From: Micrococcales bacterium
Lineage (GTDB): Bacteria > Actinomycetota > Actinomycetes > Actinomycetales > Dermatophilaceae
Assembly: GCA_021287075.1 (NCBI GenBank)
Contig: JAJTBD010000007.1
Span: 29,498 to 93,497, forward strand
DNA: 64,000 nucleotides
Direction of reading: 5' to 3'
The translations under genes were made by a program, and so were the position numbers. Position 1 is the first letter of the stretch. The number at the start of each line of letters is the position of its first letter. The notes beneath the pieces are model-generated. The model worked only from the letters and a program-made list of their open reading frames with translations. It had not been told where the DNA came from and did no database searches. Positions 40,086 to 41,380 of the stretch are shown piece after piece.

Positions 40086-41380
40086 TGTCGGCAAACCCGT
40101 TGTCGGAGAAGGAAGTCGCCGCACTGCGCGGCGACTTCCCGATCCTTGCGCGCACCGTCCGCGGCGGCAAGCCGCTGGTCTATCTCGACTCGGGCGCGAC
40201 CTCCCAGAAGCCCACCGCCGTCCTCGACGCCGAGCGTGACTTCTACACCCGGCTCAACTCCGCACCCCACCGCGGCGCCCACGCGCTCTCGGAGGAGGCC
40301 ACCGCGGCATACGAGTCGGCGCGCGAGCGCATCTCGGCGTTTGTCGGGGGCCGTCCCGACGAGCTGGTCTTCACCAAGAACGCCACCGAGTCGCTCAACC
40401 TCGTCACGCACGCCTTCCTCATGGGCGGCCACCCCGCGATCCCGGGCAGCGAGCGCTTCACCCTCGACGAGGGCGACGAGGTGCTGGTCACCGAGATGGA
40501 GCACCACGCCAACCTCGTGCCCTGGCAGGAGCTGTGCCGGCGCACCGGTGCCACGCTCCGCTGGTTCCCGGTCACCCCGGAGGGCCGGCTCGACCTGAGC
40601 GACATCGACACGCTGCTGACCGAGCGCACCAAGGTGCTCGCCCTGGCCCACGTCTCCAACGTGCTGGGCACGGTCAACCCCGTGCAGATGCTCGCCGAGC
40701 GGGCCCACCAGGTGGGTGCGCTCGTCGTCCTCGATGCCTGCCAGTCGGTGCCCCACATGCCGGTCGACGCGCCGTCACTCGGCGTCGACCTCCTGGCCTT
40801 CTCCGGCCACAAGATGCTCGGCCCGATGGGCATCGGCGGGCTCTGGGGCCGCAGCGAGGTCCTCGACGCGCTGCCGCCCTTCCTCACCGGCGGCTCGATG
40901 ATCGAGACCGTGCGGATGGAGGCCAGCACCTATGCCGCGCCGCCGCAGCGCTTCGAGGCCGGCGTGCCCATGGCCGCCCAGGCCGTGGGCCTGGCCGCGG
41001 CTGTCGACTACCTCCAGGCCATCGGCATGGACCGCGTCCACGCCCACGAGGCCGCGCTGACCGAGCGGCTGCTCGACGGTCTGGCACAGCGGCCGTGGGT
41101 GCGCGTCCTCGGGCCCACCGACATGGTCGACAGGTCCGGCACGGTGGCCTTCGACGTCGAGGGCGTCCATGCCCACGACGTCGGTCAGATCCTCGACGAC
41201 GCCGGCGTGGCCGTGCGCGTCGGGCACCACTGCGCCTGGCCGCTGCACCGAGCACTGCGCGTGACGGCCAGCGCCCGAGCGACCTTCGGGATCTACACCA
41301 CGCCCGCCGAGGTCGACGCGCTGCTGACCGCCCTCGACCGGGTCCCCGCCGTCTTCGGCATCGAGACAGGAGCCCGCTGA
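40085..41380 (+). CDS. sufS: Cysteine desulfurase SufS
   Basis: 431-aa ORF with the PLP-lysine motif FSGHKMLGP and the RVGHHCA active-site cysteine loop. Confidence 0.93.

Follow-up and report, generated by a model that had tools for sequence, protein, structure and literature searches.

A hyper-abundant, non-palindromic DNA word with dialects in Dermatophilaceae/Intrasporangiaceae, a candidate DNA uptake signal

DNA words that override codon choice and conserved residues are rare. The DNA uptake sequence (DUS) of Neisseriaceae, the uptake signal sequence (USS) of Pasteurellaceae and the highly iterated palindrome HIP1 of cyanobacteria are the textbook cases, and they point to self-recognition in gene exchange. 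Hallmarks of DUS and USS have been listed previously (PMC3630211; bioRxiv 10.1101/2025.10.24.684340). The function of HIP1 was long unclear and is now proposed to be that of a transformation or uptake signal (PMC5861425; PMC4390886; bioRxiv 10.64898/2026.06.24.733823; 10.1101/2024.09.10.611283). Here we analyse a word of 10–11 nt, CGCGGCATAC-C with the conserved core CGGCATAC/GCATAC, in a 64-kb stretch of DNA (the window; 71% G+C) from the wastewater metagenome assembly of an uncultured Dermatophilaceae bacterium. The word is non-palindromic, as CGCGGCATAC differs from its own reverse complement.

The word is the commonest 10-mer of the window. CGCGGCATAC occurs in 30 copies where an order-2 Markov model predicts 0.18, an excess over chance of about 150-fold. 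TATGCCGCG has 32 copies, 16 per strand, where dinucleotide shuffles predict 0.31 (no shuffle had more than 2), and the core GGCATAC (GTATGCC on the other strand) has 51 where 2.78 are expected. Word density is about one copy per 1–2 kb. Alignment of all 51 core copies showed information only at C-G-C-G-G-C-A-T-A-C and a weak following C; it revealed no longer repeat around the word and no information beyond 11 nt. The cores lie in both orientations (26 plus, 25 minus), interleaved along the window, and within genes 11 copies read in the sense and 14 in the antisense direction. One-letter variants are enriched as well, with 7 copies each of GGCGGCATAC, CACGGCATAC and CGCGGCATTC where at most 0.2 are expected of each. 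The copies of CGCGGCATTC (at 443, 6837, 32562, 34172, 43592, 61066 and 63500; 0.09 expected) would in frame give GCG GCA TTC (Ala-Ala-Phe) and so use the rare GCA codon once more. They may mean that near-matches are favoured too, or they may be decayed copies left by Tyr/Phe exchanges. The word can also be divided into CGCG and GCATAC, both alternating pyrimidine/purine runs (4 and 6 bp) with an out-of-phase junction at GG.

Inside genes the word is spelled at the expense of usual synonymous codons. Genes were called with a codon-usage model, a serine-hydrolase gene (29089-30603, minus strand) was added and the tallies were made on this completed set. The added gene, of the beta-lactamase family (Pfam 1.5e-45), fell below the codon-usage threshold and its codon usage may be atypical. 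A sequence-only reading of the window had counted 15 Tyr-Ala-Ala tripeptides, 11 of them written TAT GCC GCG and one TAT GCC GCC, and our tally gives the same numbers, the others being TAC GCC GCG (2) and TAC GCT GCC (1). Its count for Ala-Ala-Tyr, 12 of 15 written GCG-GCA-TAY, was also recovered (GCG GCA TAC 11, GCG GCA TAT 1). It had further tied ATA Ile codons to the word: 5 of the window's 6 ATA codons indeed stand in GGC-ATA-C (at 12305, 19994, 36158, 42594 and 56358), and both Gly-Met-Pro-Arg sites spell the word as GGT ATG CCG CGN. The gene sufS was said to carry one copy in each orientation. It holds CGCGGCATAC on the plus strand at 40303..40312, read as ACC GCG GCA TAC (Thr-Ala-Ala-Tyr, aa 73-76), and a minus-strand copy with 9 of the 10 letters at 40931..40939, which on the plus strand is TATGCCGCG (TAT GCC GCG, Tyr-Ala-Ala) with C instead of G before TAT.

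Single-codon usage predicts TAT-GCC-GCG for 7.5% of Tyr-Ala-Ala, and GCG-GCA-TAC for 1.0% and GCG-GCA-TAY for 1.7% of Ala-Ala-Tyr. Over the 64-kb window both triplets are far above this prediction, so the idea that they occur no more often than single-codon frequencies allow does not hold. Binomial probabilities, calculated on the first gene set, were 5e-10 for Tyr-Ala-Ala (11/15) and 2e-18 for Ala-Ala-Tyr (10/13). Synonymous shuffling that kept the proteins and the pooled codon usage gave 0.53 +/- 0.74 coding 10-mers against 20 observed. The share of GCA among Ala codons depends on the number of matches to the eight flanking bases (CGCG|GCN|TACC): it has a baseline of 4-6%, reaches 24% at six matches, 88% at seven and 100% at eight. 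The share of TAT among Tyr codons climbs likewise with flanking matches, from about 40% to 75% and 100%. Since codon choice tracks the whole word, a codon-pair or protein-level effect does not fit.

The word is used in four reading frames and on both coding strands. The 9-mer GCGGCATAC has 37 copies, 11 outside genes and 26 coding, and the latter are read as Ala-Ala-Tyr (11, GCG GCA TAC), Tyr-Ala-Ala (11, TAT GCC GCG), x-Met-Pro-Arg/Pro (3) and Gly-Gly-Ile-Pro (1). None of the coding 9-mer copies in the window uses the costly Arg-His-Thr and Val-Cys-Arg frames. The Tyr-Ala-Ala and Ala-Ala-Tyr peptides themselves are about twice as common as composition predicts.

One earlier statement, that TAC is otherwise the usual Tyr codon, was right only in part: TAC makes up 60% (234 vs 156 TAT), but TAT is common outside the word too. 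TAT accounts for 40% of Tyr codons in the window (156/390), all other NNY pairs being at least 90% C-ending, and only 20 of the 156 TAT codons fall inside the word. They are nearly confined to sites before G/C (148/279, vs 8/111 before A/T) and mostly follow a C-ending codon, giving C-TAT-S. The same Tyr anomaly was seen in L009 and in the Nostocoides metagenome-assembled genome (MAG) L031, with 55% TAT vs 15% for other NNT, and not in Knoellia or Terrabacter (L-numbers are labels of the compared loci and contigs). This C-TAT-S bias looks like a second, separate force at the DNA or tRNA level.

The relatives compared were SufS-anchored loci, one genome per species, and metagenome contigs. SufS scans of genomes and metagenomes gave no relative above 76% amino-acid identity, the best being Knoellia (76%). 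An exact-protein search with SufC matched a single contig, of 3.4 kb. The orthologous comparison agreed with what a DNA-level force would leave behind, as carriers keep the word at the same codons and outgroups seldom have the core even where their peptide is the same. Of 15 clade relatives, 13 retain CGG TAT GCC in sufR (here CGG TAT GCC GCG, 36019..36028, minus strand). For the acVLRF1 gene, with 14 clade relatives, 13 retain GGG TAT GCC (core at 42395..42401, minus strand, in GGG TAT GCC GTG) and 12 retain GGC ATA CC (core at 42591..42597, plus strand, in GGC ATA CCG). The same GYAA peptide is found in 20 of 25 outgroups and the core in only 2; for GYAV these numbers are 10 of 16 and 2. Judged from the alignments, the making of some copies cost a conserved residue. 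At the SufS site 41 of 65 outgroups have TDAY, and TAAY (ACC GCG GCA TAC) stands here and in Knoellia, the first Ala of the plus-strand sufS copy standing where the outgroups conserve Asp. SufD has SYDV in 26 of 58 outgroups and SYAV (TCG TAT GCC) here, in Knoellia and in L015, again with Ala in place of the outgroup Asp (core at 37895..37901, minus strand, in TCG TAT GCC GTG).

Across aligned positions, 31-66% of the window's core 7-mers are kept in carrier genera, compared with 18-25% of other 7-mers at the same divergence. In word-free relatives 0 of 64 are kept and in Pseudonocardiales 0 of 60. This conservation at orthologous sites, together with its absence outside the carriers, indicates that the word is created and maintained at the DNA level, and the comparison suggests that it vanishes completely where the maintaining force is absent. 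The earlier proposal that selection or drive acts on the DNA rather than on the protein is thus supported from several sides: frames and strands, control of codon choice by the whole word, spelling in outgroups, residue replacement and orthologous conservation. Chance and protein-level selection are rejected.

Core density is 0.4-1.6 per kb (10- to 40-fold enriched) in Knoellia, Terrabacter, Nostocoides and several wastewater MAGs, and many metagenome contigs are enriched too. Values for Pseudonocardiales, Streptosporangiales and other actinobacteria are those expected by chance (0-0.05 per kb). On these sequences the word marks a clade of Dermatophilaceae/Intrasporangiaceae, and a seven-protein neighbour-joining tree placed all carriers in one clade with 99% bootstrap. 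At least four dialects were seen around the shared core GCATAC: cgCGGCATACc in this window, L089 and L098; aCGGCATACc in L008, L090, L105 and L106; gRCGGCATAC in Terrabacter; and [C/A]CGCATAC in L036, L060 and L122. The last three have CCGCATACC / GGTATGCGG at about 1 per kb in place of CGGCATAC, with one core letter changed, and in L060 CGCATACC has 13 copies vs 0.6 expected. Word-free lineages are nested in the carrier clade (Marihabitans L004, L012/L016/L022 and Branchiibius), and L012/L016/L022 are sister to the carrier L017 with 86.5% support. Yimella is another relative without the word. The simplest history would be one origin and several complete losses, on a tree that is only moderately resolved, and the nested word-free lineages mean that any explanation must accommodate complete loss. 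Two other contigs contained different over-represented words. The actinobacterial L102 (ERZ500994.12 contig) has 16 copies of CGAAGGGG vs 1.9 expected and 13 of GAAGGGGG vs 1.1, and L130 (Ga0136611_10001465; 68% G+C, with an actinobacterial-type SufS) has 10 copies of the HIP1 octamer GCGATCGC vs 1.8.

Intergenic DNA makes up only 4.9% of the window, yet it holds 10 of the 30 10-mers, a density about 10 times that of coding DNA. Six of these intergenic copies form three inverted pairs, each a hairpin just past a gene 3' end, and two of the hairpins lie between convergent genes. The first pair, GTATGCCGCG-CA-CGCGGCATAC at 4235..4256, is part of a perfect 20-bp stem (-53.9 kcal/mol, z -9.8) between the convergent genes 3624-4208(+) and 4283-4996(-). 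The second, GTATGCCGCG-N11-CGCGGCATAC at 45747..45777 (-40.8 kcal/mol, z -4.8), lies between the convergent genes 43992-45590(+) (ABC-F) and 45796-47304(-). The third, GTATGCCGCG-N13-CGCGGCATAC at 59549..59581 (-44.6 kcal/mol, z -3.5), directly follows 58316-59524(+) and precedes 59634-60404(+). The three hairpins differ in their spacers and flanks. Their position suggests that they may terminate transcription. A depth spike coincides with window positions 45733-45787, and in the source run three further contigs, of 16 kb, 21 kb and 1.3 kb, match this segment with about 3 mismatches over 46 nt, so near-identical hairpins of paired words are present at other sites in this genome or its relatives. 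Searched in full against Rfam, the window gave no family, and since the word is moreover used sense and antisense alike, we rejected an RNA motif or family. The four other intergenic 10-mers lie between divergent genes at 378..387 (-) and 28129..28138 (+), between co-directional genes at 15591..15600 (+), and at 57789..57798 (+).

The genes of the window are housekeeping genes only (uvrA, uvrC, glycolysis, pentose-phosphate, the suf operon and transporters). Besides sufS, the 10-mer is read as GCG GCA TAC in genes for a GNAT acetyltransferase (3641..3650, +), a branched-chain amino-acid permease (6984..6993, -), a yvcK/CofD-family protein (14372..14381, +), a UbiA-family protein (ctaB; 28277..28286, +), an MFS transporter (31258..31267, -) and a SpoU/TrmH methylase (61915..61924, +), and in gene 25732-27999(-) at 27811..27820 (-). 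Besides sufR, it is read as TAT GCC GCG twice in zwf (21502..21511 and 21946..21955, both + in a minus-strand gene), twice in an ABC exporter gene (47365..47374 and 48004..48013, both -), in the ABC-F gene (44384..44393, -, as GGG TAT GCC GCG), in the second TauE gene (61006..61015, -), and in the minus-strand genes for an ABC-2 ATPase (35224..35233, +), SURF1 (49785..49794, +) and a dienelactone hydrolase (62276..62285, +). The two Gly-Met-Pro-Arg copies are in uvrA (1289..1298, -, GGT ATG CCG CGT) and in the hypothetical gene 56148-56927(-) (56692..56701, +, GGT ATG CCG CGG).

Further sites have the core only. Rare ATA codons mark those in uvrC (12302..12308, +, GGC ATA CCC), pgl (19993..19999, -, GGC ATA CCG) and sufR (36155..36161, +, GGC ATA CAG, common to Knoellia), and GGC ATA CCG is also found in the hypothetical gene 56148-56927(-) (56357..56363, -). 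uvrC has a second core in CGT ATG CCG CCT (11805..11811, -) and sufD one in CGG TAT GCC GGC (38471..38477, -). The variant GGCGGCATAC accounts for an intergenic core (9983..9989, +), for TAT GCC GCC in pgl (19919..19925, +) and for GCG GCA TAC in three genes: 17927-18724 in the tpiA region (18295..18301, +), the serine-hydrolase gene (29467..29473, -) and the small gene 50055-50297(-) (50214..50220, -). CACGGCATAC is the form at 28625..28631 (-), 33466..33472 (+) and 63044..63050 (+). The remaining cores are at 10433..10439 (+), 17294..17300 (-), 30691..30697 (-, in a TetR gene) and 55208..55214 (-).

Because it largely matches the published DUS and USS hallmarks, we chose as the best reading, and propose tentatively, that the word serves self-recognition in the uptake or transfer of DNA and has spread through biased import and homologous recombination. 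The word would act on double-stranded DNA in either orientation, and a surface or translocation protein would prefer DNA that bears it. Fragments with the word would then be imported and recombined more often, and new copies created by point mutation would thereby spread, which amounts to molecular drive. Copies would settle where they are cheapest: in intergenic DNA, with inverted pairs doubling as stem-loops at gene ends, and in genes in Ala-Ala-Tyr and Tyr-Ala-Ala, the two cheapest frames, at the cost of the rare codons GCA, TAT and ATA. Some copies would cost a conserved residue. We infer that biased uptake or transfer could be the force behind the word and that a receptor for it may exist.

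Several points weigh against an uptake signal. Firstly, the window contains no competence, pilus or candidate receptor or reader gene among its genes, and the analysis covers 64 kb of the source genome and pieces of up to about 21 kb of the relatives. Secondly, we know of no case of natural competence in this family, and in the order only of Micrococcus luteus. Thirdly, the copies are not spaced significantly more evenly than random (coefficient of variation 0.84 vs 0.97, p ~0.16). The three hairpins have no T tail, for which reason a canonical intrinsic-terminator scan calls none of them; the promoter part of the scan was likewise negative there, and metagenome and metatranscriptome contigs over 43-48 kb showed no transcript ends. 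The complete absence of the word from lineages nested among carriers also has to be accounted for. Mobile elements are usually poor in uptake sequences. The phage or prophage contig L085 (IMGVR_UViG_3300033075_000436, 1-11178) nevertheless has 9 cores within 11 kb, two of them paired in a hairpin, a host-like density that extends over capsid, portal-region and terminase genes (large and small subunit). The viral contigs L082 and L086 from the same hairpin search had only 1-2 extra copies in 11-14 kb; L083 was noted alongside L085. Lastly, Neisseriaceae and Pasteurellaceae are to date the only families for which sequence-specific uptake is accepted (bioRxiv 10.1101/2025.10.24.684340).

The host-like density on L085 would fit a process to which all DNA that replicates in the cell is exposed, and such a process is part of an explanation along the lines of HIP1, which we regard as unlikely. 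In that case a non-palindromic DNA methyltransferase, or a linked mismatch or very-short-patch repair activity, would target the word, the abundance of the word would come from biased repair or from selection for a methylation-dependent function, and the imprint on codons and residues would be a by-product. Both the excess, about 150-fold, and the sharing of sites between genomes are as described for HIP1, whose excess is 15-300-fold (PMC5861425). The patchy distribution, with absence in nested lineages, would fit a single gene, for instance that of a methyltransferase, which lineages gain or lose, as is reported for HIP1 exceptions (PMC4390886). The C-TAT-S oddity shows that unusual DNA-level forces are present in this genome. 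However, a repair bias at one position cannot alone build a 10-letter word, as each precursor is expected less than 0.2 times per 64 kb. The word is also non-palindromic, unlike every HIP, and genes of the methyltransferase or Vsr type are absent from the 64-kb window. A recent preprint argues that HIP1 is a signal for uptake or transformation (bioRxiv 10.64898/2026.06.24.733823), so that this explanation partly merges with that of an uptake signal.

Another explanation, which also seems improbable to us, is that an abundant protein of the chromosome binds the word and that selection for chromosome function maintains the sites. Such a protein could be nucleoid-associated, could load condensin or the segregation machinery, or could be a conjugative translocase of the FtsK/TraB type, which recognises 8-bp words. 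An asymmetric site of 10-11 bp would suit a protein monomer, and the periodic placement of HIP1 has been read in this way (PMC5861425). Conservation at orthologous positions would be expected, and a family-specific word with co-varying dialects looks as if a binding protein co-evolved with its site. Against this, translocase words are polar while this word is unskewed, and no regularity of spacing is visible at the 64-kb scale. The parS and matS sites, those of Noc and SlmA, the FtsK-orienting polar sequences (KOPS) and Chi are few per genome or only few-fold enriched, and we know of no chromosomal word of this type that overrides codon use and conserved residues at about 1 site per kb. Selection at hundreds to thousands of single sites would be hard to sustain without drive.

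A polar signal for recombination or translocation, either Chi (RecBCD/AdnAB) or a KOPS-type guide for FtsK or its relative, the SpoIIIE recognition sequence (SRS), is very improbable. The word is short, non-palindromic and over-represented and lies partly in the DNA-repair genes uvrA and uvrC, which would suit such a signal, but the 26 plus and 25 minus cores interleave over 64 kb whereas Chi and KOPS strongly follow the direction of replication. The missing strand skew excludes Chi and FtsK-type signals; the excess is far above that of any known Chi or KOPS, and inverted pairs would cancel polarity. Three hairpin pairs, near-identical hairpins on other contigs of the source run and the metagenomic assembly of the window might suggest remnants of a small mobile repeat (repetitive extragenic palindromes of the REP/REPIN type, a miniature inverted-repeat transposable element or an Ssn-related hairpin) or an assembly or basecalling artefact, but this is hardly credible, as two thirds of the copies are single words in conserved housekeeping genes that arose from point substitutions at orthologous codons, which refutes a mobile-repeat origin for the coding copies, the information stops at 11 nt, the hairpins share neither spacers nor flanks and match nothing in Rfam, repeats of these types are intergenic hairpins with units of 20-30 bp or more, ~30 bp in Ssn-related motifs (PMC11893778), and independently sequenced isolates (Knoellia, Terrabacter) have the word at the same positions, which rejects an artefact of assembly or platform.

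If the word is indeed an uptake signal, it may be, though we hold this more loosely than the signal itself, the first DNA uptake sequence system outside Proteobacteria, with family-wide dialects in Gram-positive, high-GC Dermatophilaceae/Intrasporangiaceae. Natural transformation that is frequent and biased towards the own species would then be expected in these largely uncultured bacteria. The clade includes organisms of the Tetrasphaera/Nostocoides/Phosphoribacter type, which are dominant in phosphorus-removing wastewater plants. A receptor might be linked to Flp/Tad pili, and natural transformation by means of such pili has been described for Micrococcus luteus of the same order (PMC4322843). 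In the literature searched, whose coverage is incomplete, neither this word nor any other hyper-abundant word is described for the family, the matches being primers or unrelated papers, and two genome-wide surveys of abundant oligonucleotides did not mention it. The kind of feature is therefore known, but this instance, its phylum and the series of dialects appear to be new. An unrelated word with dialects in an actinobacterial family would carry the phenomenon into a new phylum. It predicts that bacteria for which there is no report of competence, among them the culturable carriers Knoellia, Terrabacter and Nostocoides, take up or transfer DNA with a sequence bias. The dialects could serve as markers for taxonomy or binning of metagenomes from wastewater, and the word itself as a flag for foreign DNA in the genomes of carriers. 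Donor DNA to which the word is added might render the organisms genetically tractable. For annotation, it accounts for odd clusters of rare codons and for hairpins at gene ends.

Compared with known systems, the word is like Chi, KOPS and SRS a short, asymmetric, over-represented chromosomal word, and those are read by DNA-processing machines. They are co-oriented with replication and modestly enriched, whereas this word is divided 26/25 between the strands and is about 150-fold in excess. The Ssn-related motifs or NTS (dRS3) of Neisseria and others are hairpin-forming repeats linked to transformation (PMC11893778). They differ in being intergenic hairpins of ~30 bp that cluster at particular genes and are tied to a GIY-YIG nuclease gene, while here we find a single word of 10-11 nt that is mostly genic. 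HIP1 (GCGATCGC) shares with this word an excess of 15-300-fold, conserved sites in and between genes, bent codon use and lineages that lack it. It is however a palindrome of 8 bp in which two known orphan methyltransferases have their sites, and the Dermatophilaceae word is asymmetric and 10-11 nt long.

The word also resembles sequences of the DUS and USS kind, which enhance uptake or transformation in naturally competent hosts through a dedicated receptor (ComP; predicted ComN). Redfield and colleagues reportedly found an imprint of the USS on encoded peptides, including amino-acid changes in otherwise conserved proteins. The USS of Pasteurellaceae (core AAGTGCGGT) is hyper-abundant as well, and pairs of opposite copies form terminator stems (PMC5217627). 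It has AT-rich flanking segments that aid recognition, whereas the word described here has no information beyond 11 nt, and both taxon and word are unrelated. The DUS of Neisseriaceae (e.g., ATGCCGTCTGAA), which is read by the minor pilin ComP, is likewise a non-palindromic word of 10-12 nt with about 1 copy per kb, equally on both strands. It too forms inverted pairs that serve as stem-loops at gene ends, places coding copies in low-cost frames, has genus-level dialects around an invariant core and is conserved in core genes including uvrABC (PMC3630211; bioRxiv 10.1101/2025.10.24.684340). The likeness is one of sequence features. The words are unrelated save for a chance shared ATGCCG and the hosts are Actinomycetota and not Pseudomonadota; in Dermatophilaceae the hairpins are without T tails and some nested lineages have lost the word completely. 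Being unlike GCCGTCTGAA or AAGTGCGGT and hosted by Dermatophilaceae, the word is neither the Neisseriaceae DUS nor the Pasteurellaceae USS proper. We propose to regard it only as a feature of the same kind as DUS and USS.

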